Below are positions 3,541-33,093 of a DNA stretch of 64,000 nucleotides, piece after piece. How positions within the stretch are numbered: position 1 is the first letter of the stretch; each line of letters starts with the position of its first letter. Made by a program: the position numbers and the translations under genes. The stretch is from Setoptus koraiensis (taxonomy: Eukaryota; Animalia; Arthropoda), in contig CM106585.1 in the NCBI GenBank assembly GCA_048013815.1, forward strand, positions 7,502,001 through 7,566,000. Reading direction: 5' to 3'. The notes under the pieces are model-generated. The model made no database searches. It saw only the letters and a program-made list of their open reading frames with translations, and was not told where the DNA came from.

Positions 3541-6500
3541 TTATCGCTTCTTAAAGGTGGCACTGAATAGGCGCTTGGCACCAGATATCACGCCCGTCTT
3601 GACTGATTCCGGCGCACACGCAGCCGGAATTAGTAGTTTGGTCTGGCCAGCGAGGTTGTTTTTCGCTGCACCGGAAGTGGTGTGCCTGTCTGGTGCTAGT
3701 CTCGTGTGTTTAGCTGTTGTCTCTTGTAGTTGTCTTATATTATTGCTAGTGATTGTTTTTTTACCATTTAAATTATTGTCGCTAATTGATGCGCTCATCA
3801 GGCCTCCTTTTGTTCCATAAACATTAATGGATGGCAGTCTGTTTCTTCCGGGCGCGCCCGCTGTTCTGTTCGGCCCGGTGGCTCCGCTTGATCTAGACCT
3901 GTAGCGAGTGCTTGCTGTCACATTGTCGCCCACCATCAATCTGTTCGTGCCACTACCGCGAATAGCTCCGTAGCGCGGTGTGTCGCCCGATGTGGTATTT
4001 CTCAGCCGACCCCTAGAGGCAATAGTGCCTTGCGACAGTGTTGAGGCACCACCGCTACCCAGCGATTGTGACGATTGTCTGGGCCGGCCCTTGTACGGAT
4101 AAATGGCCGTCTCTTGATCTGGTATGTTGAGCTTGAGAAAGACACCCTGAGTGGGATACACCTGATGCAAGACAGCGTTGTCCTCGTTCTCCGACAGCAG
4201 TCTATAAGTCTCTGTGACAAACTTAAATCTGTTCTTTCTCAAACTGGACAATGATATATCTGTCGAGGTGGCTATGACATTGCGCAACTCGGCCAACGTT
4301 ATGCGTCTCTTTTGTGGCAACTCAATACGAGCTATGCACTCCTTTCTGGCATTAAAATGACCATCGTGCACTATATAAATAAAATATTTTCTATTTTTCA
4401 TCACCCTATCCAATTCTATTTCTGTGTCTATTGTTGAGCCCCTTTCGTCGTCCATATCACTAGCATTGGGATCGTTTCTGGCATAATCAATCTTGAATCT
4501 GCTCTCGATTATTTCACTAGGCGATATAACCATCATCTGCTGCTGCTGCTGTTGCGATCCGCCGTCACTCGAATGCTGCTGCTGCTGACTAGACTGATTA
4601 GCAGCACCGCCAATTAAATTCAAAATACCCGATATGGCACCATGGCCACCGGAAGCTTGTTGCTTTTGCTGGTGTTGTTGTTGTTGTTGTTTTTGCTGCT
4701 GCTGCTGCTGTTGTTGTTGCTGTTGTTGACCAACTACAGCCACTCCTTCCATTGTGACCCAACCGTCAGAATCGCTTGTATCGCCCGCCATCTTCTCATT
4801 TGTAAATTTGATTTTGCCCACGACACTCTTGTCTCTCACATCAACAATCTCAAGATCTGTCTTGCGTCGGTCTAATTTGTTCACCACCGTCGGATGATGA
4901 CCAACACCGCCGTGGCCCACTGTAGATTCACTTGTTTGCTGATGCTCTTTCAGAGAAATGTCTTGGTCTTGCTCGCCACTTTGTTCCGCTGCCATCGTTG
5001 TCGTTTGCACATTAGACTCTTGCTTCTTCAGTATAGACACCGGGCCTCGTTTTGCATTTCCGGCTGACGTTTGTGAGCCGGCTGTTTGCTTGTCCGTTGC
5101 AACTGTCTGTTGTGGCCCGTCGTTGTTGTTGTTGTCGTCTTGTTGTGAAACAGCTTTCTTGGGGCTCTTCTTATCCATGCTAGACGATTTGCCACTATTG
5201 TGATGACTCGAAGCGCTCGAATGTTTGCCACTAGTCGATTGTGAGGCCCGCGCAACCTCGATCAGAGGGTTCGGTGTGGGCCTCTCCTCGGGATTGTCGT
5301 CGTTGTTGGGATCAGATGAGCGAATTGAGTTGACAAGAGCAGCGGGCAACTCTATAGAGTCAACCGAGTTTATTTTAACCATTTTGCCGCCTTCATCGGT
5401 CGTCTCGGATTTTTTGTCAGACAATGGTGTCTTCGTTGCTTCTTGCATATCGTTGATTGTTGTTTTCGATTTGCCAGTGTCTCCATTCAGTCTTGACTGC
5501 TCATTTGTATTGAATAATACTTTTTCAACCATATTGACGCGCTCGCTTATATCCCGCAATTCATCGGCATTGTTCGCCCGCTGATTGTCATTGTTGATGG
5601 ATTTGTTTTTGTTGCTTTTGTCACCAGTGTTGGTCTCATTGATAGTCATAGAAATAGTCCCTTTTCTGTCCAATTTTTCCTCAAACATATCACCACTCTT
5701 TGTATGCTGCTCATTGTTAGCGCCAGAAGGTGTCTCTTTAAACTGAATCATAACTGTGTTGTCGTTGTTGATCTTGTTCAGTTTGTTAATTTGGTCTCTA
5801 TCAGCTTGCTGTTTTACATCTAAACCAGCACTACCGATTTCCATCGATTGTGCCAAATTGTTGTTTGTTTCCGTGGGCTGCACGATTGCCATGGCTTTGT
5901 TGTTTGCATTCATCATAGATGTGTACTCTCTCGATAATTGTCTCTTTGGCTTAGCTGGGGCACCATTATTTGGCGAGCCATCATTCTTTGTCGTGTTCAT
6001 CGCACCATCCATAATAATCACCGAGTCGCCAACGCTTTGCGCCAGTTTGCCTACATGATTGTCGTTCTGCACCATAATGGCCTGATCTAATTTATTCATC
6101 ATGGCTGGGTTTCCACGTACTTCGTGTTCGGTGGTGGATGCAAATCCAACCGATTCGTGCAGTCCACTGGTGACCGTGCCCATGATCTTCTTGTTCGCAT
6201 CATTTATCAAGCCACTTGCCAGATTAGTAGCGGCCGTGCTGGATCTCGTTTCTATTTCGTCCAACAAAGCTGGTCGTAGTGTCGTAACGGAAGATCCTGT
6301 TGACGTTTTATCCAATCGGGTATTGCCACTTGTTGTATCAATGGTAGAGTTGTTACTCGTACTTGCCGCATTGAGTTTTGCACCGCCTAGTCTAGTCAAT
6401 TTCGATGATGTTTTGTCACCGCTTGAATTAGCCCCAGTAGTATCTTTGTTGGGTGGCGACGAGGACGAGCTAGATTGAGGTGTTGCAGCTTGAGCTTGCC

Positions 6501-7464
6501 CTGTGAATAAAAGGAGGAGAGAAACAGATTGAGTATTGTGATAGACATGCATAGTTAGCCTAAAAAGATGACCGTTTTTCCACTGAGAACGCGCCGAAAA
6601 ATCGTTTTTTTTTCTTCCAGGAAATAACTCTTAAAAAAGCGCTCCAGATAATTGGGGCGAAAAATGATCGCCCTTTTCTCTGCTTTCATTCTTTGGGAAC
6701 GAGTGCTTACTTTTTTTGTACGCGCGCCAGCAATGGATTGCAAATATCGCTATTATGGTGACAACAATCACAATGTTAGACAATATAACCAACATTTCAA
6801 CTAGCGACAACAAGCCGTCTGGTCGTGTAAATAGTGACCAATGTTCACCAGCAAACTGATGGCGACCTTGATTGCCCGTCGATTTGCCAGTGGTATAACG
6901 AGGACCCAAAACTGTCTGAGGGGTTCTCCTTTGGTAGAGGGCTTGATTAATATTGGCCACTGTTGTGGGCCACAACAATAAATTTGTTGGCACTGGCGGC
7001 TGCCGAAAAACTGGCTTGTATAACTTGGCATTGGGCAATTGACTGGCTTCGGTGCTGATGTTAACTTTCTGTTTAGATCTACCACTATGTTTGTCTTCTT
7101 CTTTAGAACTGGAGGGCGCTTGATTATTGTTTTGTGACACTTTTGCCGCTGAAACGGAAGGCTGCACTTGCTGTTTACTGGCAGACTGATCGCTGGAACT
7201 TTTTGTTATAGGAATTCGTGAAGGAGTTAAAAACTTCACTGATGTGACCGTGGTTGTTGTAGATGGGGCCAATTTTGTGCTACTCGTCGCCATCGTTGTC
7301 GGTGTTGATGACGATAACGTAGTGGTCTCCATCGTTTTATTTGATGCAGTTCTAATTGCATTGGCAGCTGATGTTGAGGCCGTCTTGAAGAGAGCGCCCA
7401 CGAAAACGTTCGTCTCATTGGAAGATGTGAGATTTTTTTTCTCAAAGAATTCGCCCAGTCTCAT
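3541..7464 (-). CDS. Large single-pass membrane protein: S/T-rich ectodomain, TM helix, long N/Q/S-rich cytoplasmic tail with one globular domain; intron 6501..6710
   Basis: ORF 6631..7464 ends in a TM segment (LVILSNIVIVVTIIAIFAIHCW) followed by RAYKK; phase-1 donor A|GTAAGC at 6710 matches phase-1 acceptor ttattcacag at 6501, joining it in frame to the 1003-aa ORF; globular block KYFIYIVHDG...QGVFLKLNIP. Confidence 0.65.
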
Positions 7465-7477
7465 CTTTGCGATTCGA

Positions 7478-8104
7478 TTAGCTGTTTATTTTGCTATCAT
7501 CAGCCTGTAAAGTGTTGTTTTCGGGAACCTCTTTCACAACTTTTTGATAGTTTGATATTGTGTTGGTCGGTTGTGCTGGCTTCGGTGTAGTTGTTGTTGT
7601 TGTAGTTGTTGATGTTGTAGAAGTTGTTGTTGTGCTAGTTGTTGTAGTTGCAGCAGCTTGCTTTTTTCTGGCCACACTGATAGTGGGCCACCTTTGGGGC
7701 CTCTGCGGACCTACACGGGCTATGGGTATCCGTCTGTAACTAGGTGGCGTTGTTGTGGTTTTTATTTGGGTATCACTAACTATATTATGTGGTCGGACTG
7801 TGTTAGTGTCAGCATTGGTGGTAATGGTGAAATCATTATTGTTAGTCGTTATTGTTGTTTGTCGGTTGTTGAAAATTGTAGATTTTGCTAATAATCGATT
7901 GTTGTTAAATCGTAAAACTGTTTCATTCTCTTGTGCTAATCTTTTCTTGGCTTGATTAGATGCAGTGATTGTAGAAAAATTAGTTATATTTATCTGTTTT
8001 CGCTGTTGTAGCATGGTGTCGGCGACGATGGTTTTATTGATTGTTGAGACACTCGGATTGCTTTGTAAAGTTGTCAATCTCGAGGCTGTTCTAGGCTCAG
8101 CCAT
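7478..8104 (-). CDS. Thr-rich mucin-like segment, probably an upstream part of the same membrane-protein gene (junction unresolved)
   Basis: 208-aa ORF with poly-Thr tracts, same strand, ending 14 bp before the next ORF in a different frame; no clean splice pair found. Confidence 0.4.
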   Translation of the reverse strand: MAEPRTASRLTTLQSNPSVSTINKTIVADTMLQQRKQINITNFSTITASNQAKKRLAQENETVLRFNNNRLLAKSTIFNNRQTTITTNNNDFTITTNADTNTVRPHNIVSDTQIKTTTTPPSYRRIPIARVGPQRPQRWPTISVARKKQAAATTTTSTTTTSTTSTTTTTTTTPKPAQPTNTISNYQKVVKEVPENNTLQADDSKINS

Positions 8105-8429
8105 AATGCCAGATGACGATTTACACGATACCTTTCAATTATTCTCTCGATTGTCGCATGATGCTTCCGATGTGATAATCCTTAAGACACTTGACTGGAC
8201 TTGACTCGTTCACTAAGTTGATCCTCCCGCGATGATGGTTTTTGCTAGGGATAAGATTTCATCTAACTAAAATCCACCCTTTTAACGATTGATTAAATTC
8301 AGATCATTATTATTGCACGTGGCATTGGAAAAATCTCTTCCTGAACCACTTTTATGAGGGGCTGGTTGACCATGGTAAATAGGATAAATTTGCATATTTA
8401 TCTATTTTTGTCAACTCCTTTTTTGACAT

Positions 8430-8567
8430 TCAACACCGAAAAATTGAAGTACTACAACTCGCCAATGACTGCACATGCAGTTTTGAGCATTTAGTTGGCA
8501 TGCAAGTGCCCAAACGTAATTTTGTGTAGTAGAAATATTGAGCTTTCTTAGCAAAATGATTGAATAG
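8430..8567 (-). CDS. Possible exon with an NRF-6 N-terminal-domain-like motif
   Basis: After a ccattttcag acceptor the frame reads LFNHFAKKAQYFYYTKLRLGTCMPTKCSKLHVQSLASC, resembling the LG.C.P..CS...V..L motif of NRF domains; short match only. Confidence 0.3.
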   Translation of the reverse strand, partial: LFNHFAKKAQYFYYTKLRLGTCMPTKCSKLHVQSLASCSTSIFRC

Positions 8568-10953
8568 CTGAAAATGGATTGATTTAAAATCGATGATGAT
8601 TTGATTGACAGTTCATCTGAGCGGCGTTTGGTGTTTTGTTTGACATAGTAGATTTACATTGTTGTTATGTCACCAGAAACAAACATTAACATTAACAATT
8701 GTCGTAGGAGGAAATAGAAAAGAGTGTTGTTATATGATGATTAATCATTAGTTAAAGTCAGTTCATGCTTGTCTGTTGTTGTTGATGGATAATCGTTGCT
8801 ACAAAATGTCGAACACGGACATACATTCTTGAGGTTTATGTTTGTAACTCATGGGATGAATTGTTTGTTTTCTCGTGGGTCGTCTGACAATCTAGATGAA
8901 TTTTCTCTAGATTGTTGGTATTCCTTTCGATTCTTTCACTGTAGCTACAGTCAACATTTTTTCTCTTGAATTGACAAACTTGATGCGAGTTGACAAAACT
9001 TCCTAGTTAAGAAAAGAACACAGAGTCCGTGCCTGAAGCGAAACTGTTTCGCTGACCTATCTAACAAGACGATCCGAACGAACATTTACTTTTTGATTCA
9101 ATAATTCCAGTCGTTGCACAGTGTTGCGTGGGACACATTTGCATACAATATATAGGGCATTACGTTTTTTGCGTTGCACCAGCGACCCGCAGACATGCGG
9201 ACTGTCGCACGAGTTTACGAGAGCTTACCGAAAAACAAGGAGTAGCCTTGAATGAGTGTGTCAACCTCAGGCCAGCCACCACCACAGAACATATTTTCTA
9301 TTTGACGTTGTGGCTGGTGCTGACCAGTTCACATAAAACAAGAGGGGAAAAAAGGAAGGCTCTAGAAAGAGATTACGGCTAACGGTTAAATCAGCAGCGC
9401 AAACAGCAGCGAGACTGGCCCGAAATTTGTGCTCTGTGAACTGCTCAGATTGTAATTAGCCTAGATTGTATTTTGCGCCCACCATTAGCGCCATCGCGGT
9501 TGCTAGCAAAACTGGTCCTCTTCATTTTGCCCGTCTCCCCTCTGCTCCCCTCCCACCGCAAAAGTAGCTCGTAGTACGTGAGCACGTGCTTCCAATTTTT
9601 CGCTAGCTTCTGGTGTTCAGCTAAAATGTGGTGTTCATAGAGAGGCAGCGTATGGTCGCTTCTGCTGTTGTGTAGTTAGATAAACTAATGACCCAAACTA
9701 AACTTAATGGTAACTTTAATATATCTCTCCCTCTATCTCCCTTTCGATATTATTCAAAGGCTGCTCAATCATAAGTGAGGCCACTCAAACGACATCGTCA
9801 ACATTATCACCAAAAAGGCCAGCTCAGGTGAGTCAGCTTTGTGTACGCGCAATGCTAATCGCTGCACCTAGCGCTCAGATAATAATGTATGCGTTACTGT
9901 TCGCCGGATATAGAGACGGTGAGACAGAAAGATCCTCATTATAAGTGCTGGGTATTGTAATTTTTAGTGCGTGACGAGACACACACACACTCTGGCGATG
10001 GTTGAAAAACCATGCAAACGCAGCGGAATAGAAATATTTCAGTTGTGCACTATTCAGTCAGTCGGTCAGTTATGTGTTTTTGCTTGTGTCTGTTCAATAT
10101 TGTCCAGCCTCTAACGTGAGAGCGTTTGCTTTGAGTAACGTTGACTTGCAGTTAACGGTTTGTCAATTGTCAACCAGCCGAAAAAGGATCCACCTGACAC
10201 GGGCAAATTACGCATGCACAAACACAAACGTATTAATAGCCCTGCCAGAGGCGACAAAAATACGCGCGATTCTTCCTCTCTCTACACGATCAGACGAGCG
10301 GAGAACTCACCCACCACCGCCCGGTTATCACAAGCGGATCAAAGTTGCCCTTTGTATGTGTCTGACGATGCGAGCCCGGCTTGTCCGTGCGATTCTCCTG
10401 CGACCATCGGACGAAACGGATCTAAATCTATACTGAATGGGTGGCAGACTAATTACAATTCATTTAGAAAATTTCCATGGTGGCAGAAACGAGACAATAG
10501 AAGTTAGCTAAATATATTTTTTATCGAACTACACATGGATGATAATATCAATGACAGTGGTAATCATATAATAGCAATAATAGTAATAATAGTGATTACT
10601 ATCGTAAATGGTTTTGCCAGCGCGAAATTGCAGGTAGAAGCATTCTTTTATTGAGACGATTGGTGGTTGCTGCAACGTCTTAGGAGGATTTGAGAACTCT
10701 TGTTGGTGATTAGGTTGGTTGATGTTCAGTGAATATAAACCAAACAATATCACGATTGCCGGCATCTTTGCGGGGTGATTTTCACTGCGCTTGCGGTGGT
10801 TCACTGTTAAGTTAGTTATTGGTGTGGTCGGTGGGCAATGGCGGCAGGGACAAATGGCCGATGTTAGCTGGTCAGAGTACCTCTCCCTGCTAAATTTGGG
10901 CAATAAGTTAAAGAGGAGTGTACGGAAATGAAATATACGTTGGAGGTACGACC

Positions 10954-12429
10954 TTATCCATCGTTCGATTGGGGTGGCGGTTTCTCATTGCTAGTCATTT
11001 GCTTTCTTTGGGGTGGCCAAAGTTTCGCATCGAATTTTGCCTTGAACTCACTAATTAGAACGGCCTCGAAATTTTCATCACTATACTTGGTGTCGAGGCC
11101 CTTTTCCAACTCCGTAGCTAACGACAATCCCTTCTCGAAGAGTTTATGGAAATATGGTATCCTCTTTCCATCTCTTAGTAGGGAAGCTTTTAATAGATCT
11201 GTGTGCTTGCAATTCTCACTTGCTGCGTTGATCCCAGCTAATAGACACCACAGTTCTTTGTTTGTCGCATTACTTAGAGAAGAATAAAATCTTTTGTCTA
11301 TAAGACGAGCATACTTTCCCATAGATAGATCGAGTTGAACTGGTTCGAAAATTGCGATTAATAACAACCTAACACAATTTTCAAACTGTTTCATGAGCGT
11401 CGCATTTTTCATATCCTTAATGCTAGCCCTCAACCAGCAAATTGCTACGTAAAAAGGTAGTTTAAAGTTTAGTTTGAAAGTGAGTTTAAATACCGCCATA
11501 TCAGTCCAATCTAAAGGCAATCGTATTGCATATTGATGGAAAATCTCACGTTTCCTATACGAATAAGCGTCATACACACCTTTTCGGTTGGCATCTTGCG
11601 AATGAAAGAAGTAGATAACATCAGCGAGTGTGCTCTTGAAAGGTGCGTAATCTTCTCTGGCTATAGCTTGGTAAGATTCGATAAATTTCTCACTTATCAG
11701 AGGGAATGATGGAGGCCAAGCAGTACGTACGAAAAAACCAAATCTATTGAATAAAAGTCCTTGCAGATGTTTCATAGAATTGTATCTCGATTTCGTTAGA
11801 ATTCTAAAGCTGGCCATACTAAACAGGGCAAAGAATGCAATAGAGTCTTGTTTGTGTGATATATCCGAGTACCACTCATTGAATCGTTTATCATCTACTT
11901 CTACAGTTCCTGCGGTGTAACATTTCGATTCCGGAATATTGATCTCCTTTTTGCAATTAAAGTCTACCTCCATTCTAGTAGATAGATTTTCTGGTATAAT
12001 CAGTTCTCTGACGGGTCCTCTCCTAGGAGACTCTATCATCTTGCGTCCGTGAGTCGCGTTGTAATCCGTATTGAACAGATCTGGAGCCAACTGCAACATC
12101 AAGTTCATCAATATTGCGAAACTCGAATCCTTCACTTCTGTGTTCAAAGTGGCATGGAAGTTGTGGAAATAAATCAGTAGTTGCTCGTCGGTTATCTCTT
12201 TTCGTAGCTCGTATTTCGGTATATCCTCTATACAATAGTCCATCCAAACTAATTCTTCATTTGGATCGAATTTAGACCAATATTTCTCAGTAGATTTGTT
12301 GTAAGGTGGTGTTTCCGACGACGAGCTAGGGCTACTTGAATCATTTTTTGGGTCGCCACCAGAATTGATTTTCGGGTCTTCATTTAGGCTCCTTTCATCT
12401 TGGTTTGGTTCTGGAACTTGTTCTGCCAT
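10954..12429 (-). CDS. Plant-rhabdovirus-like nucleocapsid (N) protein, endogenous viral element copy A, 491 aa, intact and intronless
   Basis: Collinear N motifs: WMDYCIEDIPKY (W.D..L..I..Y), FSMASFRILTKS (A...RL.TK), LPLDWTDMAVFKL (cf. F.Y.GMHAY.L), KYARLIDKRFYSSLSNATNKELWCLLAGI (YAR..D..YF..LQ...C..L...LA); length typical of N. Confidence 0.78.
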   Translation of the reverse strand: MAEQVPEPNQDERSLNEDPKINSGGDPKNDSSSPSSSSETPPYNKSTEKYWSKFDPNEELVWMDYCIEDIPKYELRKEITDEQLLIYFHNFHATLNTEVKDSSFAILMNLMLQLAPDLFNTDYNATHGRKMIESPRRGPVRELIIPENLSTRMEVDFNCKKEINIPESKCYTAGTVEVDDKRFNEWYSDISHKQDSIAFFALFSMASFRILTKSRYNSMKHLQGLLFNRFGFFVRTAWPPSFPLISEKFIESYQAIAREDYAPFKSTLADVIYFFHSQDANRKGVYDAYSYRKREIFHQYAIRLPLDWTDMAVFKLTFKLNFKLPFYVAICWLRASIKDMKNATLMKQFENCVRLLLIAIFEPVQLDLSMGKYARLIDKRFYSSLSNATNKELWCLLAGINAASENCKHTDLLKASLLRDGKRIPYFHKLFEKGLSLATELEKGLDTKYSDENFEAVLISEFKAKFDAKLWPPQRKQMTSNEKPPPQSNDG

Positions 12430-13059
12430 ATTTTTCGGGTTTGTAAATAATCTAATATCTAGTAAGAGAGTACCAAGTTATCTTGTGATATAAATATTAG
12501 ATGGGTTATGTTGAGAATGAACGATTGTTTATTCAACAGGGCGCTGTTACTATTATCGAGTGATACCAAGTATGTTACATAATTGACTGAATTGCCAGTG
12601 CAAGCTGTTGAAGATTTGATGCAATGCAACAGCATGCGTGTTCGATCGAACGATGAAAAAGTGTCGTAGCAACACGTCTGATAGACGCCGCCAGTTTGTT
12701 GAAATAAGTACAAGCGAAATTGATTTCTATCTTCTCTTGATGTTTCTACAGTACAAGAAACGCTTCATCATTGTATCCGCGACCGGCGGACAAACTGGCG
12801 GCGTCTATCAGACGTGTTGCTACGACACTTTTTCATCGTTCGATCGAACACGCATGTTGTTGCATTGCATCAAATCTTCAACAGCTTGCACTGGCAATTC
12901 AGTCAATTATGTAACATACTTGGTATCACTCGATAATAGTAACAGCGCCCTGTTGAATAAACAATCGTTCATTCTCAACATAACCCATCTAATATTTATA
13001 TCACAAGATAACTTGGTACTCTCTTACTAGATATTAGATTATTTACAAACCCGAAAAAT

Positions 13060-14550
13060 ATGGCAGAACAAGTTCCAGAACCAAACCAAGATGAAAGGAG
13101 CCTAAATGAAGACCCGAAAATCAATTCTGGTGGCGACCCAAAAAATGATTCAAGTAGCCCTAGCTCGTCGTCGGAAACACCACCTTACAACAAATCTACT
13201 GAGAAATATTGGTCTAAATTCGATCCAAATGAAGAATTAGTTTGGATGGACTATTGTATAGAGGATATACCGAAATACGAGCTACGAAAAGAGATAACCG
13301 ACGAGCAACTACTGATTTATTTCCACAACTTCCATGCCACTTTGAACACAGAAGTGAAGAATTCGAGTTTCGCAATATTGATGAACTTGATGTTGCAGTT
13401 GGCCCCAGATCTGTTCAATACGTATTATAACGCGACTCACGGACACAAGATGATAGAGTCTCCTATGAGAGGACCCGTCAGAGAACTGATTATACCAGAA
13501 AATCTATCTACTAGAATAGAGGTAGACTTCAATTGCAAAAAGGAGATCAATATTCCGAAATCGAATTGTGACAGAGAAGGAACTGTAGAAGTAGATGATA
13601 AACGATTCAATGAGTGGTACTCGGATATATCACACAAACAAGACTCTATTGCATTCTTTGCCCTGTTTAGTATAGCCAGCTTTAGAATTCTAACAAAATC
13701 GAGATACAATTCTATGAAACATCTGCAAGGACTTTTATTCAAAAGATTTCGTAGCTTCTCAAGTTCTGCTGACCCTGAAGTATTCCCTCTTATAAGTGAG
13801 AAATTTATCGAATCTTACCAAGCTATCGCCAGAGAAGATTACGCACCTTTCAAGAGTACACTTGCTGATGTTATATACTTTTTTAATTCACCAGTACTAA
13901 AGGAAGCTAGCTCACCACTTGACTCAATTCTGTACAACCATTATGAAAAACGCGATTATTTCTATCGCTATGCAATTCGATTGCCTCTAAATTGGACTGA
14001 TATGGCGGTATTTAGAATCTTTTTTGGAATTGAACGCACAGATCTTCGTAAGTTAGTTTTATGGTTGAGGGACCGAATTGAGGAAATGAAAAATACCTCG
14101 ATCATGAAACAGTTTAAAAATTTTGCAAGGCTGTTTTTCACCTGCTGTTGGCGACACTATCGACCTTCTTCTATGAAAAGGTATGCTCGCCTTATAGACA
14201 AAAGATTTTATTCTTCTCTAAGTGATGCGACAAACAAAGAATTATGGTGTCTATTAGCCGGGATCGGAGCGTCAAACAATTCAAATTATATGGGGCAAAA
14301 GAATATACACATATTAAAAGCTTTCCTACCAAGAAATAAAAAGAGGATATCATATTTTCGGAAGATCTTCAAGAAGGGATTCTCGTTGGGTGAAGCGTTG
14401 AGAAAGGGCCTTGACACCAAGTATAGTGATGAAAATTTCAACGTTCTAATCAGTGAGTGTAAGGCGAAATTTGATGCGAAACTCTGGCCACCCCAAAGAA
14501 AGCAAATGACTAGCAATGAGAAACCGCCACCCCAATCGAACGATGGATAG
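13060..14550 (+). CDS. Plant-rhabdovirus-like nucleocapsid (N) protein, endogenous viral element copy B, 496 aa, intact and intronless
   Basis: Inverted paralogue of copy A; first 100 aa identical; retains RYARLIDKRFYSSLSDATNKELWCLLAGI and LPLNWTDMAVF. Confidence 0.78.
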   Translation: MAEQVPEPNQDERSLNEDPKINSGGDPKNDSSSPSSSSETPPYNKSTEKYWSKFDPNEELVWMDYCIEDIPKYELRKEITDEQLLIYFHNFHATLNTEVKNSSFAILMNLMLQLAPDLFNTYYNATHGHKMIESPMRGPVRELIIPENLSTRIEVDFNCKKEINIPKSNCDREGTVEVDDKRFNEWYSDISHKQDSIAFFALFSIASFRILTKSRYNSMKHLQGLLFKRFRSFSSSADPEVFPLISEKFIESYQAIAREDYAPFKSTLADVIYFFNSPVLKEASSPLDSILYNHYEKRDYFYRYAIRLPLNWTDMAVFRIFFGIERTDLRKLVLWLRDRIEEMKNTSIMKQFKNFARLFFTCCWRHYRPSSMKRYARLIDKRFYSSLSDATNKELWCLLAGIGASNNSNYMGQKNIHILKAFLPRNKKRISYFRKIFKKGFSLGEALRKGLDTKYSDENFNVLISECKAKFDAKLWPPQRKQMTSNEKPPPQSNDG

Positions 14551-15280
14551 GGTCGTACCTCCAACGTATATTTCATTTCCGTACACTCCTCTTTAACTTA
14601 TTGCCCAAATTTAGCAGGGAGAGGTACTCTGACCAGCTAACATCGGCTATTTGTCCCTGCCGCCATTGCCCACCGACCACACCAATAACTAACTTAACAG
14701 TGAACCACCGCAAGCGCAGTGAAAATCACCCCGCAAAGATGCCGGCAATCGTGATATTGTTTGGTTTCTTCTCACTGAACATCAACCAACCTAATCATCA
14801 ACAAGAGTTCTCAAATCCTCCTAAGACGTTGCAGCAACCACCTATGGTCTCGATAAAAGAATGCTTCCACCTGCAATTTCGCGCTGGCAAAACCATTTAC
14901 AATAGTAATCACTATTATTACTATTATTGCTATTATATGATTACCACTGTCATTGATATTATCATCCATGTGTAGTTCGATAAAAAATATATTTAGCTAA
15001 CTTCTATTGTCTCGTTTCTGCCACCATGGAAATTTTCTAAATGAATTGTAATACTTCTGCCACCCATTCAGTATAGATTTAGATCCTATTCCTTTGATCG
15101 AAGAATCTCGCGGACAAACCGAGCTCGATAATATAGAGAAAAACCGTCGTGCCGAAACAAGATCAAAAACAAATCGCAAATAGATCTGATAAATTTTACT
15201 CTTTTAGATACATTGAATAATTAATATGACAGTTCTCAACAATTACATAACACATGGACATAAGACAGGCAGGGTTAATA

Positions 15281-17866
15281 TCACAGAAATGACGAAGAGG
15301 AGGAGGACGAACTTGATGACGAGTTCGAATGCTGAACATTTGGTTTCTTGTTATTATTACCTGTCCGTGGCTCAATAACACCATCTAAAACGTAAGCTAG
15401 TGCTGTAGACGTCAATTTCCTGTCGCAGTCCTCAATTGTTGCATCTAATTTGATTAGTAATGATTCCTTTCTACTATCGAAGGCTAGCTTCTTGTCTGAT
15501 TCAACTTTTGAGAAAAGATTATTCGCTTCTATTTCGTCAACTATATCCAGAAGTCTAGACTTGATTTCTTTGAGACTGTTCAATAATGTAGATTTGATAT
15601 CGCGACCCAATGATCTGTAGCCGTCATCGTTGTCTGAGTCGTTGGAGTCTTCATTTTCGGCTATGTTGATCAACGATCTGGGCGTTGAGCTAACCTTGGA
15701 AAGGTTAGAACCAATAGATTTCTTTTGATGATGATTGAGAGTTACAACAGGCATGAAGTCATCGTCGTCTTGCCGCGACAGCTGTTTCACTCTTTTCAAA
15801 CTTATCCTTTGGTTACAATCCAGTTGATCTTGAAGACATTGCAATTCTTGATGAAGACGGCTGATTAGTTTGTCTTTGTCACAATCCAACTGATGATTTT
15901 GTTTGTTAGCTTCGTTCAGGGTATCCAAGTCTTTCTTCATTTTTTCAATTATGTCATCTTTCATCTTGACGCGTGAATCGTTATTTTTACTATCAAGTTC
16001 TAACTGCCGGTGCTTCTCATTCAATGAAGCGATCACCTCTCTGGACTCTTTGAGTTCTTCTGCCAACTTAACCAAGTCACTGGCTAGTTTTTGATTTTCA
16101 CTTTCGAGATTGTTTTTGTCTTTCTGCATGATGACGAATGAATCTTGCAGTGAATTATAAGTTTGATTCTGAATACGTAGCTCCTCTTTTTTGTCATCCA
16201 GCTCTTTCTGAAGATTCTCGCATTTAGCTCTCAGAAGCAAGTTTTGTCTGGTTTTTCTCACAAGAGCAGAATTCTTTTCCATCACGGTCTTGCCAACTTT
16301 TTCATAATCCCTTTGCAATTCATTGTAGGATTCTTCACTATTTCTGATGGATTGTTTTAGTTGCTCGATGAAGAAATTTTGATCTTTAATTTTGGAGTTC
16401 AACATGACACTGATAGCCTTGTTAGAAGATAAATCGTTTGTTGATGTCTGACTCTTAGCAGCTTTGGCCTGCGTGCTCTTGGAGGAATTTGTCAAAAATG
16501 ATACGTCGCGGAACTGCGACTTCAAACACTTATAAACCATTTTGAAATTGCTGCTTGTAGAGTTGCTAGCGCGACCTGCGTTGGCCGGAAGTGAAGCACT
16601 CGATCGAGGTTTGTTAATTTGCTGACTTGTATGTCTTTCGGGTGCTCTTCGCGTTGTCCTAACGAAAGATCTGTCGTCTTTGACCTGTGAAACGCATCGC
16701 CGATGATGTTGATTGGGTTCCGTTTCTAAAGAGTCAGGTTCGAAGCTTTCGTCATCTTTACGATGGTCGTCAAAATCATGATGCACTTGAAGTGACGAGA
16801 ATGAATTATCGCTCGTCTTATTTAAAGGATTTATTCCTCTCGATTGAGAGACATTAGTCAATAGATGAGATCCTGTGCAATTACACTCCAAGGTCGTATG
16901 AAAATTTTCCATTTTATTACTCAATGGTTGAACATGACTGTCCAAATACTTTTGATATGTTTGGTTGGACCGAGAATCGGGTAAATTTCCATAGATTGCA
17001 CGCTGGTTTTTCACCATGAGTTCCTTGTACTCATTACGTCCGTACCTATTACCAGTATTACTATCTGTACTATAGTCACAACTGTTTACTTGATCGAATG
17101 TAGGATTGTTAGAGGCAAATACTGGTGGCAATGGGGGCGGAGGTTGCTGATATGTGGGCAGATATTTGGTCGGTTGCTCGAACCAATTCGGATTATAGTT
17201 CGCATAAATGGAACAGTCAATACATTGTTGTGGGTCGACAAAACAATTTCGATTCTGTATTGGTGTTTGCACAATCAAGTTTGATGAATTTTGAGGATTA
17301 GAGTTGTTGTGGACACAATTGAAATCCGGTGAACACAGACAAGTGTAATAGGGAAAACTAGAGTTGGTGTTGCTTCTTGGACCATATGATAATTCCTCTG
17401 ATGTGTTGTGTAGGTCAGGTATGCTGTTAACGTAAATATTTGATATCTGACCAATATGGGAAACGTAATTTGATTCCGTATCGATAGCTTTTAATGGCGT
17501 AGAACAAGAGACCGGACGTGCTATCTCGTCTACTTTTGTTTGAAAGCTGACACGACGCGGCCGAGGCGTTGGTACATCAATAGGTTTCGACGCTTCGAAA
17601 CAGAAGCGACAATCTGGCGGGCATTTACTACAGTCAATGTTACCGTAAGTACTGTTTGGCGATTCGTCCTCGTCACGAGAGCTTTGTCCTATTAGTTGTT
17701 TTAGGTTACCATTTTTGGTTATTGTCATGAGCAAATCAGGTTGACACTCAGTATTAGTTGAATTGGTAGGTTTAACAGTGAGAGATTCGTGTTGAGAACC
17801 GTAAACATTTTGATAGACTTCATCCAGTCGTTGCTTTGATGGCGGCGGATGTCTGGGAGTTTTCAT
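15281..17866 (-). CDS. Uncharacterised 861-aa protein: disordered N/S/P-rich N-terminal half, coiled-coil C-terminal half
   Basis: Long ATG-initiated ORF; E/K/L/Q heptad-rich segment at about aa 495-700; no family recognised. Confidence 0.75.
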   Translation of the reverse strand: MKTPRHPPPSKQRLDEVYQNVYGSQHESLTVKPTNSTNTECQPDLLMTITKNGNLKQLIGQSSRDEDESPNSTYGNIDCSKCPPDCRFCFEASKPIDVPTPRPRRVSFQTKVDEIARPVSCSTPLKAIDTESNYVSHIGQISNIYVNSIPDLHNTSEELSYGPRSNTNSSFPYYTCLCSPDFNCVHNNSNPQNSSNLIVQTPIQNRNCFVDPQQCIDCSIYANYNPNWFEQPTKYLPTYQQPPPPLPPVFASNNPTFDQVNSCDYSTDSNTGNRYGRNEYKELMVKNQRAIYGNLPDSRSNQTYQKYLDSHVQPLSNKMENFHTTLECNCTGSHLLTNVSQSRGINPLNKTSDNSFSSLQVHHDFDDHRKDDESFEPDSLETEPNQHHRRCVSQVKDDRSFVRTTRRAPERHTSQQINKPRSSASLPANAGRASNSTSSNFKMVYKCLKSQFRDVSFLTNSSKSTQAKAAKSQTSTNDLSSNKAISVMLNSKIKDQNFFIEQLKQSIRNSEESYNELQRDYEKVGKTVMEKNSALVRKTRQNLLLRAKCENLQKELDDKKEELRIQNQTYNSLQDSFVIMQKDKNNLESENQKLASDLVKLAEELKESREVIASLNEKHRQLELDSKNNDSRVKMKDDIIEKMKKDLDTLNEANKQNHQLDCDKDKLISRLHQELQCLQDQLDCNQRISLKRVKQLSRQDDDDFMPVVTLNHHQKKSIGSNLSKVSSTPRSLINIAENEDSNDSDNDDGYRSLGRDIKSTLLNSLKEIKSRLLDIVDEIEANNLFSKVESDKKLAFDSRKESLLIKLDATIEDCDRKLTSTALAYVLDGVIEPRTGNNNKKPNVQHSNSSSSSSSSSSSFL

Positions 17867-18059: not shown

Positions 18060-19028
18060 TTATCGACTTACCTTGAGAGAGTTGAACTTGCTATGCTGAT
18101 TTTCCATTAACAGTTGTTTTGAGTCATCTTGGAGATTTTTTACTCGTGCCAGAGTTTCCTCGCCGCTCATAGTAATGACATTCAGAGCATTCTTCTCACG
18201 TCGACGGCGTGGTGGTTTTATGGGTACATCAAGATCAGAGTTTGAGTGCACGTCAACATAGAACGTGCCACAATCAACGTTCGATGATGATTCATCATTA
18301 TTTGGGTAGATGGTGTTGTTGGCGTTATTAGCGTGATTATTATTATTATGATGTTGTTGATTGTTTGCCGTCAGGTTTATTCCAGAATCAACAGACAGAT
18401 GAAGATTTTCGAGGTGATCAGTTTTTTCATCAACGGAACGTTGTTGTGGTTGATGCGCAATTGATTCGTAAAACACAGTTGGACAGTGTGTTTCCGTAAT
18501 ATTGTCGACAACAATTTCATACGAATCATTTGTGTGATTGTTTTGCCAATCGTCAATTGGGCACGATGAATCCAAATGTGGTTGGCATTCGAGCGAATGC
18601 GAGTGATCATGGGCATCCATTTTTTGATAGCCAGCATCAATTTCGTTGCCGCGGTTTTTCACATATAGGCCATCATCATTAGAATTCCATTGATTGTCGT
18701 GTAGACCAGAGTGGTCGGTTGTTGTTATAATTAAGTTGGCGTCACGTTGCGTTTTATTATGGTTCATTTGTTTGTTTAATCGAGATTGACGAGGCATCGG
18801 ACGAACAGGACAGGCCGGAATTGGTCGCACAAATAGGTTTGTTTTACATGGTTTAGATGTTGGTTGTGTTAGTTGATGCACATAGTCGTTGAATTGAATC
18901 GCGAGCGGCATCATCATTTGTTTGAATAGTTTCAATTTCACATAATTAGACGGGTTACATTTAAGAATAATATGATTAGTTTTGATCTTATATTTGATAC
19001 GGTGAGAGTTGAGCTTTCGAGCAGTCAT
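18060..19028 (-). CDS. Uncharacterised N/H/D-rich disordered protein (true start may be the internal MMMPL)
   Basis: 322-aa ORF, low complexity, PIKPPRRRR motif near the C-terminus; no family recognised. Confidence 0.55.
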   Translation of the reverse strand: MTARKLNSHRIKYKIKTNHIILKCNPSNYVKLKLFKQMMMPLAIQFNDYVHQLTQPTSKPCKTNLFVRPIPACPVRPMPRQSRLNKQMNHNKTQRDANLIITTTDHSGLHDNQWNSNDDGLYVKNRGNEIDAGYQKMDAHDHSHSLECQPHLDSSCPIDDWQNNHTNDSYEIVVDNITETHCPTVFYESIAHQPQQRSVDEKTDHLENLHLSVDSGINLTANNQQHHNNNNHANNANNTIYPNNDESSSNVDCGTFYVDVHSNSDLDVPIKPPRRRREKNALNVITMSGEETLARVKNLQDDSKQLLMENQHSKFNSLKVSR

Positions 19029-20855
19029 TTTATATAGCCTGTTTGAGAATGTCTATTTGAGTACTTGTGATTTGTAGTGTTTTTTAGTAGTGATGCAAAG
19101 ATAGTTGGTTAGATCTACGTTCACACAGAGACTACTATGCATAAAGGCCACCAGTCGAATGACTGTTGAATCGTCAACAGAATAACAAAACGCAAGCAGA
19201 TGTAATAAGAAACTTCACTTTATCATGGTCAAAGTCATTTCATTTGAATACCATCGTGTCTCGCATCACGAGCATCAAAGGCAATGTAGCACAAATCACA
19301 ATGCAACACATGCTAATGTGCCATATCACACATTGCTAGTACCAGTACTGGGTGATCATTATCATTCGTCTGTTACGCGCATACATTCCAGCATGCAGAG
19401 ATAACCTAACGACCAGATTCCATCATCTCAGACGGTACCTCTTCCTGATTGTAATGTTAGTTGAATGTAATGACGGATGAAAAAAAAAAGTCCAGTAAAA
19501 AGAAGAAACCCTCTACTCGAACTATAGGAGGAAGTGGGGACCCGCCATACGCTCACTGTGTGAGTGTGTCCGATTCAAAGAGAACGTATAAGTGGCAGCA
19601 CGTGAGAACTTTCGCAGTGATTCCATCGCAGTGAAATATGTCAATAGATGAGAACGTTTGCGATTTGTAAGTTTAGCCATCTGTGATCATCATTGCATAA
19701 AATCTGCCCGTACGGTAATGCTTGCTACAATGCACAACCAACAACAGCATGGCGGGAAGTACCATCAATGGAATCTAATGGTGCACAATCTATTTCGGAG
19801 ACAAACTATTAGTTGTTTGTTTCTATAATGACAGGAATGTAAGGAATAATGACATTTTGCGACGTCTACAGAGTAATATTAGTTCTTATTAACAACAATT
19901 TATTTCATTTCTGTTGAAATGTAATCTTTAGAATATAGAGTAATAGACCATTGAGTGTAAATATTCATCAATGGCTACTCGATATAACATAAAACACGAG
20001 TTGCTTAACAATTTTGACAATTTGTAGTTAGTATACTGATTAAACAATGATTGCAAGAACGCCAAAAAACTTCTATTATTTTACACATATACCTATATGT
20101 ATATATACAGTGGTTGCTCTCAAAATATTCAATATCTCATCTAAGAGTATATTTGTTTACTAGAAACGCACATTTTACCGGCCTTGCTAATAAATCATAA
20201 TGATAAAGCATCAGACTAAATCTAAAGCAAGCGAATAGATTTGTCGATGTTGCAATTAGCATTATACTATACAAATTGTGTATAACAGTATAATGAAACG
20301 CATACTTAGTTACTCTCATTTCAGGTATAATAATTGCCTATTGAAGTAATAAATGACAATCACAAATTGTCGGCTGTGCGTGAGAAGTACAGAAATTGGT
20401 AGTTTAAAAAAAATTATTGTGAAAACAACGTGCTCTTAAGAAGATTATTAACATCTTCTCTCGATTTGACAAATGAGAGATTATTGCTTTGTTTTTCTTC
20501 TTTGATGATTAGCTTTGCCAACGGTAAACGACACGAAAGCTCGCATTCGTCAACTACCAGATATTAGATTGAAGATTATAGTAGTAGTAACGATAATGTG
20601 AGCTATTCGACAAAATACGATATCTTAGTGAGTTCATTTCCCTGGATCGAGGAAACGATCAGCGAATCGACGATACTTGAGGTTTCAGATTTAGTTTGGA
20701 TGGAGAGTATAGTTTCGCTTGGGCCGATGGACAAAGTGTGTAAAGATTGAAGGTTAGAGTGACTGTCGTTGAGGATTAGATAGCTGATTGAGGTGTTATT
20801 TTTCCAATTGAGTTGAAATAGCGCGGCTTGATGAAGAGAGTTCTTGTAATTAGTA

Positions 20856-23800
20856 TCACTGAAATAGACCGGATATAAAGTTACCAGGTCCAGATGGACG
20901 CTGAAAATTTCATCAGAGTTGAGTTTTCAGTTATAGTGTTTGTTTAGTGAGTTGAAATAGATATAGATAGAGATGTAGGTGAAGGTATATAGATACAGGT
21001 AAAGATTTAGATGAAGTTAAAGATATCAGATAGCAAATCAGAAAATTGAGAATGTCATCTGAGGTAACTGCGGTATAATCATGTGCACTCACCTGGTTCT
21101 GAGGGGGTTGTTTCTGCTGTTGCTGATGTTGTTGGTGCAATGGTGGGGCGTGCGGAGGTCTGTGCGTTTGTTGTGGATTTTGAGGACCCATGAGGCCCCT
21201 TTGCTGCAGCTGTTGTTGTTGTTGCTGTTGTTGTGGTGGCGGAGGGCCAGGCCTTCGCTGACCTTGCTGTTGTTGTGTTTGTGAGGATGTCGGAGGTTTC
21301 TGTTGTTGTTGTTGTTGCTGCTGTTGTTGCGGTGGTTGCTGAGAAGGACCTTTTAAAGCAGAGGCAGCCTCCGCAGATTTCATCAATGCAGCTTGCAGGT
21401 CTTCAATTTGTTGGCGCAAATTGAATTTCTCCTCCTCACTTGTTGACAAGATCTTTAATAATCTTTCAAGTTCAGCTTGCGCTTGCTTAAGCTCTTTGCC
21501 AACTCTCTCGAGTTCAACTTTCAACTTAGCTTTATCTTCTTCTAATACTTGAATTTGTTGCTTCAATTGTGTAACTAATTTATTTTGATCGCCTGACTGA
21601 TCTTGTTGTTGCTGTTTCGATGCTGCTTCCAACTCTGACTTCAGTCGTTCAATACCTTTTTCTCGTTCATCCAGTTTTTTCTGGAAAGACTGAAGCTCTG
21701 CATGTTTCTGTTGAAGATGGTGATCAGACTTCTCCTGTTGTTGCTGTAACGAGTTTAGGTCACTCTACATGAAGCGATACAGGATGGATTAGACAATATA
21801 CATTTGATTAGAAATTGTATCACAGAATGATGTATACTACCTATGATCAAAGAAACAAGGGAAAAAATTCATCGAAGGATCAAAACTTGTACGAATATGA
21901 TTAACAAAACAGAAAAATAGAAACGAACCTCTCGTTTCTCTAATTCCAAAATCAATTTCTCTAATTGAGTTTGGAACCTCTCTCGTTCAAGTTCAAAGTT
22001 GGATATTTCTTGCTGTGCCTTCTCTAATTTTTGTCGTAATACTTTAGATGACTGTTGATGTTTGTTGGCCTCTTCCCTTTGAACATCGAGTTCTTTCCTT
22101 AGTTGGTCGACTTGCTCAATAAGTTGATTTAATTTCTGTTGCTGTTCACCTATTTGCTGATCTTGAGTCGGTTTCTTGGATTCTTGAGATTGCTCTCCAG
22201 ACTGATCAACACTTTGCTGCTGTTTTATTATCATCTGTTGTTGTTGGTGACTTTGTTCATTCAACACCTTGTTCCTATCATTCAATTTAATTATCTCGCG
22301 CTTCATATCTTCTGATGTCTTTTGGAAGGCTTTGATAGCCTCGACAGCTTTCTCAAATTTAGATTTCAATTCGGCATTCTCAGTTGTTGCTTGCTTGAGT
22401 TGCTGTTCCATCATTTTGAGAGCCTCTTGCAATTGTTGCAATTGTTCTTTCTGCTGCTGCATCCTCAACTGATATTGCTCGCGTTCCTGGTTAGACATTT
22501 GTTGCTGTTGAAGCTGCTTTTGCTGTTGAAGCTCCTGCTGCTGTTGGGCCCCTTGTTGACGAACTTGTTCGTAAGCAGTTGCTAGTTCTTGCACTTCGAT
22601 CTGCAGTTGATTTCTTTCTTCACTCACTTTCTGCAACTCGTTGGTCGACTTATTCACTATCTCTTGGAGTCTCTTCATCTCATTATGCATTTTATCTAAC
22701 TCTTGTTTGCTGGGCTGAGGAGGACCATGCTGAGATGACTGCTGCTGGGTTTGTTGCTGCTGTTGTTGTTGCTGGACTTGACGTTGTTGTAGTTGCATTT
22801 GTTGATGGATTTCTTTATTTTGCTGTTGCACGGATTTGTTGTCGTTTTCTAATCTACCGATATAATGAGCTGCGTCCTCTAAATCTTGCTTCAGACGTTC
22901 TATTTCCATTTGGAGGCGCTGATTCTCAGCCATCGTCTTTTGGAGATCTGTTTCGGATTTAACTAACATTTGTTTCAATCTAGCAACATCATCGGTCTTA
23001 GCTTGGGGTTGAGGGGATTGTTGGCTCTGCTGAGGTGCGGGTGCATTTGATACGGCTTGTTGAGGAACACCTTTGCTGATCGTCTCTATTTGAAGTTGGA
23101 GCTGTTGAATCTGATTTTGCATTACTTTGGCCTCTTGAGCGAACTGGTCTCGTTCTTTCTGCGCCTTGAGAAGTTCTTGCTGCTTGCGTTCTATCTTGTC
23201 TCGCATTTTCTCAAACTCAATCATACCTCTCTCGACATCTTGCTTCTGTTTGGATTCGGTTTGCTTATACTTTTCAAGTCTCATCTCTGAAGCTTCGAGT
23301 TCGCGGCGTAACAACTCTTTGTCCAACTCGTAGTTCTGTTGTTTTTCTTTGAGTTGTGAAAATTCCTTACGTTGTTGCTGGTATTTTTCTCTGATCGTAT
23401 TCAGTTCTTGACAAACACGTAGGAGTTCCTCATCATGGATTCGTTTAGTTTCCTGTATTGAGGTGGATTGTGTATTTCTAAATCTATCAACCTCTGTTTG
23501 CAATTGTAAGAGTTGTTGCTGCAACCTATCCTTATCTGAAGTTAATTTTTCACAGTCTCCATGAGTTGAATCGTACTTGGCTTGTACTTTTTCTAGTTGC
23601 AATTTAAATCTCTCTAGCTCCATTGTTAACTTTTCTTCGTTAGATTTGGATTTCAAAAGTTGCTGTTGATGTTGCTGCTCACTTTGTTGGAGAGATGATT
23701 TTGAATCTAGCATCATCCTTTCTTTCTCTAACTGAAGTTTGTTAATTTCTCTTTGGTATTGATCCAGCTTGGCTAAGGCCCGTTCTAATTCAGAGGACAT

Positions 23801-32100: not shown

Positions 32101-32270
32101 GGTGCAAGCAGCCTCCAGTTGGCACTGCACAGCGAATTTGGATACTGGACATGGGCTCTTTCATCGATTCTTTATGGCCTCTACCAACAATAACCGCAGC
32201 TATAGCTAACTGTTTGCTGGCTCGCACTGTCCGGCAACACGCACACACACACACACACTGTGTGACAGCG
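26680..32270. repeat. Microsatellite-dense, GC-richer zone: many (CA/TG)n, (GA)n and (CTG/TTG)n tracts, a 9-bp repeat near 29664 and a 14-bp repeat at 30679..30725
   Basis: Directly visible tracts, e.g. (GA)n about 26690, (CA)n 27720-27757, (TG)n about 29455, 29990, 30230, 30316; (gatgctgtc)n; (cgttcgccgttgct)x3. Confidence 0.9.
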
Positions 32271-33093
32271 AGCGGACATAACAATGCCAACAACCATTCA
32301 TCATGTTCTACTTTTTTACAACCAGTACGGATACACACATCAATCCGTGTAGCGGGTCCACTTGATAGCTTGCTCTCTGTTTAGATACACCCTCCAGCAC
32401 CGGATGCCGGAAAGATGCTCTCTAATAGATATTGTTATACTTCTCACGTGTATTTTCTCACGTTGCTACTTTGCGAGCAGGCCAATCTGCGCTACTTAAA
32501 TAATCTCAACACATTCCCACAAAACAATCTATTTTCTTTTCTTTTATCATCGTGGTGCCATCAACCTGTTGCAAACAAACTCCGTCTATCTTATCACTCT
32601 ATTTATTCGTCAACATATAAACAATTCATCGCCATAGCTCTACTTTGGCTTGCTTGTTTTATACCTGTATTTGTGCTCATTTTGGGCCAACCATGCCGGG
32701 AATGAACGATCCTGAAATTGTCTTACATGGGACCCAGAATGACGAAGATGAGCACATGTATTGTTTGGTTTTGTTCAGTTCAGTCGAGTCAGATATTTGA
32801 TGGGCCCCTTTCACTTTTATGCGTAATCCACCTGAGTCGCACAAATCCTAGTGATATAAAATTCACATCTATATACATACATCGGTGTCTGATCTGTTGT
32901 AGCTATTATCCACTTGTGTTCGATACGTTTGGACGCCGAAAGAGAAACGACATTGATAAACATGACCAAGAAAAGATTAGTATAATTCGTAGCGAATTTC
33001 TTGCAGATCGGAATCATTGCTTGAAATTCTAATTTAATTTATTCTTTTTTTTGTATCAATTACTTTATAACAGGTAACAATTGAATTAATTAA

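Follow-up and report, generated by a model that had tools for sequence, protein, structure and literature searches.

Why would a mite hold, side by side in its DNA, two intact genes that resemble the nucleocapsid (N) gene of plant rhabdoviruses? The question is raised by a 64,000-nucleotide (nt) stretch of contig CM106585.1 (hereafter the window), for which a preliminary description, made from the letters alone, had reported two stop-free open reading frames (ORFs) of 491 and 496 amino acids (aa) and had taken them for a viral N gene integrated and duplicated in a host genome. Both ORFs are present (1476 and 1491 nt), and are called N1 (left) and N2 (right) below. As the best explanation we propose, tentatively and at somewhat less than an even chance, that the N gene of an unsampled PF03216-type rhabdovirus was integrated into the germline, duplicated, reshuffled by gene conversion and kept as a protein, likely as an antiviral decoy.

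The inverted gene pair and its homology

N1 and N2 leave a 630-bp spacer in opposite directions, and their proteins are identical at 385 of 499 aligned columns. Together with the spacer and the 3' flanks, they form one 4.7-kb palindrome with a 90-nt loop, which the preliminary description had overlooked (Table 1). Two ungapped pairs of arm segments, 11595-12699/12790-13894 (1105 nt) and 10406-11062/14442-15098 (657 nt), are 96% identical each, and between them lie four shorter pieces at 78-92%. Identity between the arms is 99-100% in the spacer and codons 1-100, 94-98% up to codon 227, 69-82% per 100 columns across codons 228-450, and rises again to 95-100% in most of the 3' flank; furthermore, the longest identical run in the ORF measures 300 nt, against at most 95 in 2000 shuffles. 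Long inverted arms, a short loop and patchwork identity, the marks of a converting palindrome, are therefore all found here, and such a patchwork is the expected outcome of arm-to-arm conversion or of replacement of one arm's middle from a paralogue.

The homology to rhabdovirus N is remote and recurs in several comparisons. At E≤0.1, neither full protein matched any Pfam family but PF03216 (N1: E 1.2e-4, 22.1 bits, residues 197-400 on profile positions 108-293 of 293; N2: E 0.018, 14.9 bits), and with trimmed cores the best score was 23.1 bits, the E-value of N1 ranging from 6e-5 to 1.2e-4. A full HMMER pass over 1,835,955,588 representatives returned a single relative, P0001 (322 aa, 24% identity, E 5.4e-5), which matches PF03216 at E 2.4e-5; its alignments with the mite proteins score 148 and 116, the shuffle maxima being 56 and 61 (300 shuffles each). 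P0001 itself is a PF03216-like singleton on a 3171-nt contig and may come from a virus or from another insertion. Moreover, the order of motifs given in the preliminary description was borne out at N1 residues 62, 206, 308, 373 and 390, and by eye the mite proteins are collinear with a published N alignment (Figure S5, PMC3136472) in W..D...I..Y, the 'RxxTK' helix and YaRifd. The longer motif YaRifdxxxfxxLQtkxC (PMC3136472) is matched through L, again by eye, with a tail that departs from QtkxC as the PYDV row does. We consider N1 and N2, judging by these alignments, to be probable divergent homologues of plant-rhabdovirus-type N, not formal PF03216 members and of no given genus.

What stands of the earlier claim of a plant-rhabdovirus N gene is thus the PF03216-type homology, carried by the profile, P0001 and the motifs. 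A plant virus as donor is not established, and a mite-associated rhabdo-like virus with the same domain has been described (PMC11512250). Since a plant rhabdovirus also replicates in Brevipalpus mites (PMC11757783), the host of the donor virus may have been mites, plants or both. None of the sequence searches returned a named viral N sequence: the word-indexed protein search gave 0 of 6057 candidates for N1 and 0 of 6788 for the three-sequence alignment, PDB sequences gave nothing beyond myosin at E 0.8, and viral contigs, metagenome contigs and the ESM Atlas held no matches to the N proteins. Exact matches were likewise absent for all six window proteins searched (0/6).

The structural comparison proposed earlier spoke neither for nor against N homology. 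AlphaFold models from two- and three-sequence alignments were mostly helical, with mean pLDDT of 32.8 and 39.5, too poor for a test of the two-lobed N fold. Foldseek with these low-pLDDT models gave no match among viral models at E≤0.001 for either, which has no bearing on the fold, and a wide structure search of the PDB with a low-pLDDT model was equally uninformative (best Z 6.5, on short helical pieces, and no mononegaviral N among the best 50).

The absence of adjacent P, M, G or L genes, as first described, was upheld: no other viral family exceeded its cut-off in the long ORFs scanned (26 of 56, among them the longest ones beside the pair), P and M being so poorly conserved that the test is weak for those two. 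Between 8000 and 18000 no Rfam family was found, and no protein family matched the 151-aa frame behind each stop or the 136-aa frame in the spacer. The spacer likely holds both promoters. In it, two candidate core-promoter elements precede each start codon: an initiator-like TCAGT at a distance of about 160 nt (12899-12904) and, closer in at about 65 nt, an AT-rich run resembling a TATA box (about 12990-13000), both mirrored on the left. A candidate viral gene-end motif at 15134 was rejected, as the pattern had been fitted to the window, and 12 of 100 shuffles gave as many matches.

Folded as RNA, the inner arms are predicted to pair almost perfectly (691 nt at -572 kcal/mol), a direct consequence of the repeat. 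This bears on a rival explanation in which RNA is the product: read-through of the palindrome would yield a long hairpin and, from it, antiviral or self-silencing small RNAs, the open frames being incidental. The 861-aa gene on the right is transcribed towards the right arm and ends about 150 nt away from it, and insertions in mosquitoes do produce piRNAs (PMC5497376). However, N1 and N2 face outward, so that neither mRNA contains both arms, and the frames are open exactly where pairing is worst (70-75%). In addition, small RNAs depend on a nucleotide sequence that closely matches a current virus, and such a match is unlikely for a long-diverged copy. We rate this explanation as rather improbable.

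Table 1. Features of the N-like gene pair and of its palindrome (window positions)
Feature	Position	Strand	Remarks
N1 (left copy), N-like gene	10954..12429	-	491 aa, one stop-free ORF; PF03216 E 1.2e-4; P0001 E 5.4e-5
N2 (right copy), N-like gene	13060..14550	+	496 aa; start context A at -3, G at +4
Diverged block of N1, codons 228-450	11080..11748	-	27% DNA difference from N2, dN/dS 0.95
Diverged block of N2	13741..14427	+	more basic: K+R 35 vs 28 in N1, residues 280-450
GmH-aligned segment of N1	11488..11508	-	reads DMA; in N2 13993-14013, also DMA
YaRifdxxxfxxL segment of N1	11275..11313	-	in N2 14182-14220; identical in both copies
Left arm	10371..12699	.	ungapped match from 10406; looser homology to about 10371
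Right arm	12790..15127	.	ungapped match to 15098; looser homology to about 15127
Unique loop between arms, 90 nt	12700..12789	.	an X1 contig ends exactly at 12699
Upstream spacer common to both genes, palindromic	12430..13059	.	1 difference in 270 bp
3' non-coding part of arm	14551..15098	+	mirror 10406-10953; 95-100% identical over most 100-nt blocks

Linkage to host DNA and a third copy

The host is likely an eriophyoid mite, to judge from its predicted proteins: among the 120 best of 3017 matches to the window's pyruvate kinase, the nearest named one by identity was from the gall mite Fragariocoptes setiger (80%; other named mites 65-72%, and one further protein 96%), and host ORFs in the window are long and dense, as in the eriophyoid Aculops lycopersici, where 83.7% of genes have no introns (PMC7738191). 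For the same reason the intronless state of N1 and N2, correctly described as single ORFs, is a weak sign of viral origin and, in so intron-poor a lineage (PMC7738191), effectively none. By base composition the two genes do not stand out (third-position GC 0.39-0.40, vs 0.34-0.44 in seven host ORFs).

Of 13 public runs listed, six, from four studies, contain at least half of the region's words; X3 and X4 seem to be one data set filed twice and the sample behind X2, X5 and X6 may be the source, so that about two independent sets are represented. Contigs of four runs were compared with positions 6500-12789, that is, the left half and the loop. The end of the left arm is crossed without difference by an X6 contig (10088-10602) and an X3 contig (9935-10445), the continuation into the N1 ORF is given by an X1 contig (10418-11019) and another X6 contig (10719-11112), and X1, X3 and X6 each contain an exact match to the N1-specific block (418, 392 and 421 nt). 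Overlapping contigs thus join the viral gene to host DNA, as in an endogenous element, one run being marked as DNA (a guessed kind). With the mite-type pyruvate kinase in the same window, this supports the host-DNA location first proposed. For the right side, an X3 contig carries 16 differences from the left arm over 10418-11037, equal to the 16 of the window's right arm, and extends 787 nt further; provided that this is the right flank, it would reach about 15873, in the 861-aa gene.

These contigs also bear on whether the genes are real but their palindromic arrangement is an assembly artefact, made when divergent alleles of a single locus were set next to each other in opposite orientations. 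In another part of the window, the scaffolded assembly does carry 990 bp in duplicate on either side of a gap, none of the contigs listed for the four runs over 6500-12789 spans the loop or the whole palindrome, and arm-specific X1 contigs have about half of the flank depth (104 vs about 190-225, contig depth being no copy number). Yet the outer arm joins two different flanks, with exact X3 and X6 contigs across the left junction, and the X3 contig with the right arm's difference count continues into other sequence; in addition, contigs of X1 end at 10418 and 12699, where branching would be expected of a palindrome. An artefact is, in our view, very improbable.

A third copy was found at the end of an X1 contig of 13,067 nt. 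Aligned to 11756-12526, a stretch in which the window arms differ at 16 positions, it shows 94 substitutions and 24 gap letters; a similar sequence in X3 (621 nt; 87 substitutions, 24 gap letters) shares the joint in the upstream DNA. This copy is 82-88% identical and shares upstream non-coding DNA out to about 12650 (joint at 12526-12574). Since the match takes in non-coding DNA ahead of the start codon, copying in the host involved the promoter region as well as the gene. Another contig of X1 has a C-terminal version in which one segment falls 21 nt short of its N1 length, a difference of whole codons, and the summed X1 depths fit three C-terminal versions, depth again being no copy number. 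By tblastn, the 64-kb window contains no third copy. The third copy may be a paralogue, or an orthologue from a co-sampled mite lineage. In any case, the palindromic arms and the contigs agree with the earlier proposal that duplication followed integration.

Some observations on the runs stand apart. In X3 there is little cover at 9650-10279, and left-arm contigs are 3.8-5.8 deep vs 17.7 for the right-arm contig, a pattern that may hint at copy-number variation, which depth and holes do not show. The non-coding stretch left of the palindrome (8161-9600) is highly polymorphic among runs, with several haplotypes per run (23 differences in one 402-nt X3 contig). The single inner-arm X1 contig (nine differences where the arms differ at 17) resembles a converted mosaic and was not counted as evidence, since bubble removal by the assembler could give the same, and run X7 (share 0.05; few shallow contigs, mostly in the ORFs) was not used as expression evidence, having been found through the region itself. 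No RNA data sets containing the region were listed, and a synteny search with the neighbouring 1182-aa Cast-like ORF returned no locus.

Divergence of the copies and possible function

The difference between N1 and N2 is concentrated in codons 228-450, where dN is 0.33, dS 0.35 and dN/dS 0.95 (confidence interval, CI, 0.65-1.4); five gap-free segments picked on DNA identity gave 0.72 (CI 0.44-1.18). Nevertheless, the frames are more open than neutral divergence would leave them: only 7 of 20,000 neutral simulations remained stop-free, the analytic probability of no stop is 0.012 on the most cautious count, down to 3e-5 (7e-5 on all aligned codons), and the length differences between the copies net to whole codons. 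In this context, the earlier statement that the genes were kept intact is right as to the frames, which exceed neutral expectation, and finds no purifying selection behind it in dN/dS. Since the intervals include 1, rates alone do not separate drift from mixed selection.

Synonymous divergence speaks to where the difference arose. Between the copies dS is 0.24-0.35, their protein identity being 66%. Viral N genes so far apart in protein sequence would be expected to have saturated synonymous sites, and the divergence of N1 and N2 therefore arose in the host. This counts against a neutral relic, that is, a duplicated, drifting insertion whose frames are open by luck or whose diverged halves came ready-made from two virus strains: the low dS is unlike divergence within a virus, and the third copy, by sharing upstream non-coding DNA, places the split in the host. 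The probability of no stop and the in-frame indels point the same way. A relic would, however, agree with a dN/dS compatible with 1 and with the even spread of differences over codon positions, and rhabdovirus insertions in mosquitoes are commonly duplicated (PMC5497376). On balance a relic appears doubtful, with a low probability.

Neither protein has a signal peptide or a membrane span (N-terminal window hydropathy at most -1.44), and the start-codon context of N2 is good; the proteins would consequently be intracellular. For the RNA-binding effector raised in the preliminary description, a secreted form is weakened by this non-hydrophobic N-terminus. An effector belongs to a wider alternative, domestication for a non-antiviral host job, either as an RNA-binding or scaffolding protein in mite cells or as a factor delivered to the plant, which we regard as unlikely. 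The open frames suit it, the changed GmH motif suggests altered biochemistry, and a planthopper element needed for development is a precedent (PMC10636211). Housekeeping co-option, on the other hand, predicts orthologues and a dN/dS well below 1, whereas the rates are near 1 and no close relative was found among the 1.84 billion representatives, though many eriophyoid-like data sets are in a related collection; delivery to the plant is further disfavoured by the missing signal peptide.

Returning to the decoy proposal, its steps differ in strength. Since the N gene is present alone, an N mRNA of viral origin would very probably have been reverse-transcribed and then integrated into the germline. 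With high probability, duplication in the host was followed by gene conversion, by which the copies stay alike on the promoter side, in the first 100 codons and in the 3' flank, codons 228-450 being left apart or swapped from a paralogue. Selection would then probably hold both frames open and permit or drive amino-acid replacements in the C-terminal half. In rhabdovirus N this half contributes to the RNA groove and contacts both neighbouring N and P. Granted the selection step, chances are about even that the proteins, acting in the cytoplasm, would enter or bind complexes of viral N and P and disturb encapsidation of the genome, and the varied half could give each copy a different virus specificity. 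A changed GmH and a diversified C-terminal half would fit a decoy that spoils viral complexes, as in the bornavirus-like N of the squirrel (PMC10636211).

Several points weigh against this explanation. All PF03216 scores (22.1-23.1 at best) lie below the curated gathering cut-off of 25 bits, so that the profile check proposed earlier yields the best and only family for the full proteins and not membership. GmH reads DMA in both copies, although eight of eight viral rows have the G and six of eight the H, and P0001 retains both; on this alignment, the change may alter normal RNA binding. Differences between the copies are spread evenly over codon positions (65/55/60), dN/dS is compatible with 1 in every region tested, so that the rates show neither purifying nor positive selection, and positions shared with P0001 are not depleted of differences (p 0.40). 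The stop-free test is subject to ascertainment, the locus having been picked for being intact, and the third copy could come from a co-sampled mite lineage. Finally, we know of no cognate virus, and hence of no demonstrated target.

A bolder extension, which we consider improbable though of interest, is that the mite runs a recombining family of virus-derived N decoys, in which the palindrome would preserve common promoters and a common N-terminal part, and shuffling and diversification of the C-terminal halves would track rhabdoviruses, much as in a plant R-gene or TRIM5 cluster. If true, such a family would provide protein-level antiviral immunity in a lineage where A. lycopersici has no clear R2D2, AGO2 or RdRP genes (PMC7738191). 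It would also be a fossil record of a plant-type rhabdovirus lineage replicating in the eriophyoid germline, a lineage not tied to eriophyoids in the papers searched.

Surrounding sequence and known systems

The placement of the pair between ordinary host genes, as first described, holds for the window and not for the immediate neighbours (208, 284, 1029 and 861 aa), none of which scores above cut-off for any Pfam family; the closest host gene of clear identity, Cast/ELKS, lies at about 26 kb. On the right is the single-ORF coiled-coil gene of 861 aa (15281-17866, minus strand), whose 3' end converges on the right arm. On the left, three consecutive low-complexity ORFs without a family occupy 3541-8134 (minus strand; 1029, 284 and 218 codons stop to stop): the first two are split by one same-frame stop (6631-6633), there is an overlap of 8 nt between the second and third, and they could be parts of one gene via read-through, sequencing error or small introns.

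Beyond these, introns separate the exons of the Cast/ELKS (bruchpilot-like) gene at 18060-29183 (minus strand), in a neighbourhood otherwise poor in them; one stretch of this gene is free of stops for 1204 codons. Two adjacent ORFs of equal length (182 codons; 31266-31814 and 31832-32380, minus strand) lie in a GC-rich stretch (54-56%). Between 34134 and 59022 there are single-ORF host genes for a LARGE-like glycosyltransferase, an amine oxidase-like and a RacGAP-like protein, seryl-tRNA synthetase, pyruvate kinase and a short-chain dehydrogenase, besides a shortened laminin-alpha-like gene (1255 aa). The stretch 59268-61748 contains a scaffold gap of 500 N (about 60258-60757) with a direct repeat of 990 bp (99.7%) on its two sides, which is likely one sequence placed twice by scaffolding; this repeat and gap cause a false low GC and spurious ORFs there.

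Rhabdovirus N insertions are already known in mites, mosquitoes and plants. With the rhabdovirus N-like sequences (RNLS) of plant genomes and the N/CP of cyto-, nucleo-, dichorha- and varicosaviruses (PF03216; PMC3136472), the mite pair shares its length, motif order, the YaRifd-type motif and the occurrence of a lone N gene in host DNA, and it differs by its animal host, DMA for GmH, a sub-cut-off Pfam score and the palindromic arrangement. Rhabdovirus N insertions in mosquitoes are often duplicated (PMC5497376). Tetranychus urticae, also a plant-feeding mite, has two rhabdovirus N insertions bearing large ORFs of 1032 and 1239 nt (PMC11512250), whereas here, in another mite lineage, the ORFs are full-length and form an inverted pair with a diversified half. 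An eriophyoid host, a palindrome and a diversified half were not found in the papers searched, a search outside which lay most subscription journals and the supplements of eriophyoid genome papers and of PMC11512250 (Table S2), which may list such genes; in the text of PMC13253887 that is cited here, eriophyids appear only as possible emaravirus vectors.

For the proposed function, the endogenous bornavirus-like N genes (EBLN) of the ground squirrel and miniopterid bats supply the model of a lone mononegaviral N kept as an ORF, and the squirrel copy inhibits bornavirus replication when expressed (PMC10636211, Introduction). Those are mammalian, from another virus family and with a function shown, while the mite pair is known from its DNA. 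Among plant-feeding arthropods, the functional NlToEVE14 of a planthopper (PMC10636211) and the partitivirus-like RdRPs of Brevipalpus yothersi, which are expressed virus-derived genes (PMC13517406), are likewise lineage-restricted genes of non-retroviral RNA viruses; both come from dsRNA viruses and are expressed, in contrast to a negative-strand virus N known from genomic sequence. Whether arthropods use such genes at the protein level has been called an open question (PMC10636211), with few worked cases. The mite pair would be a compact and testable one in a very streamlined genome lineage.

Moreover, with both genes full-length and most of their differences in one half, the pair lends itself to the question of which part sets specificity. 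It is also a pointer to a rhabdovirus lineage, so far unsampled, in eriophyoid mites. As these mites are pests of crops and vectors of viruses, the pair is relevant to their possible cargo; should the frames prove unexpressed, the locus would be an ordinary viral fossil in an unusual arrangement. As for that arrangement, gene-bearing palindromes are homogenised by arm-to-arm conversion, for instance on the mammalian Y. The mite palindrome shares with these the inverted arms, the short loop and the long near-identical tracts, and it differs in being far smaller, in carrying a virus-derived gene and in a central coding block that has diverged by 27%.

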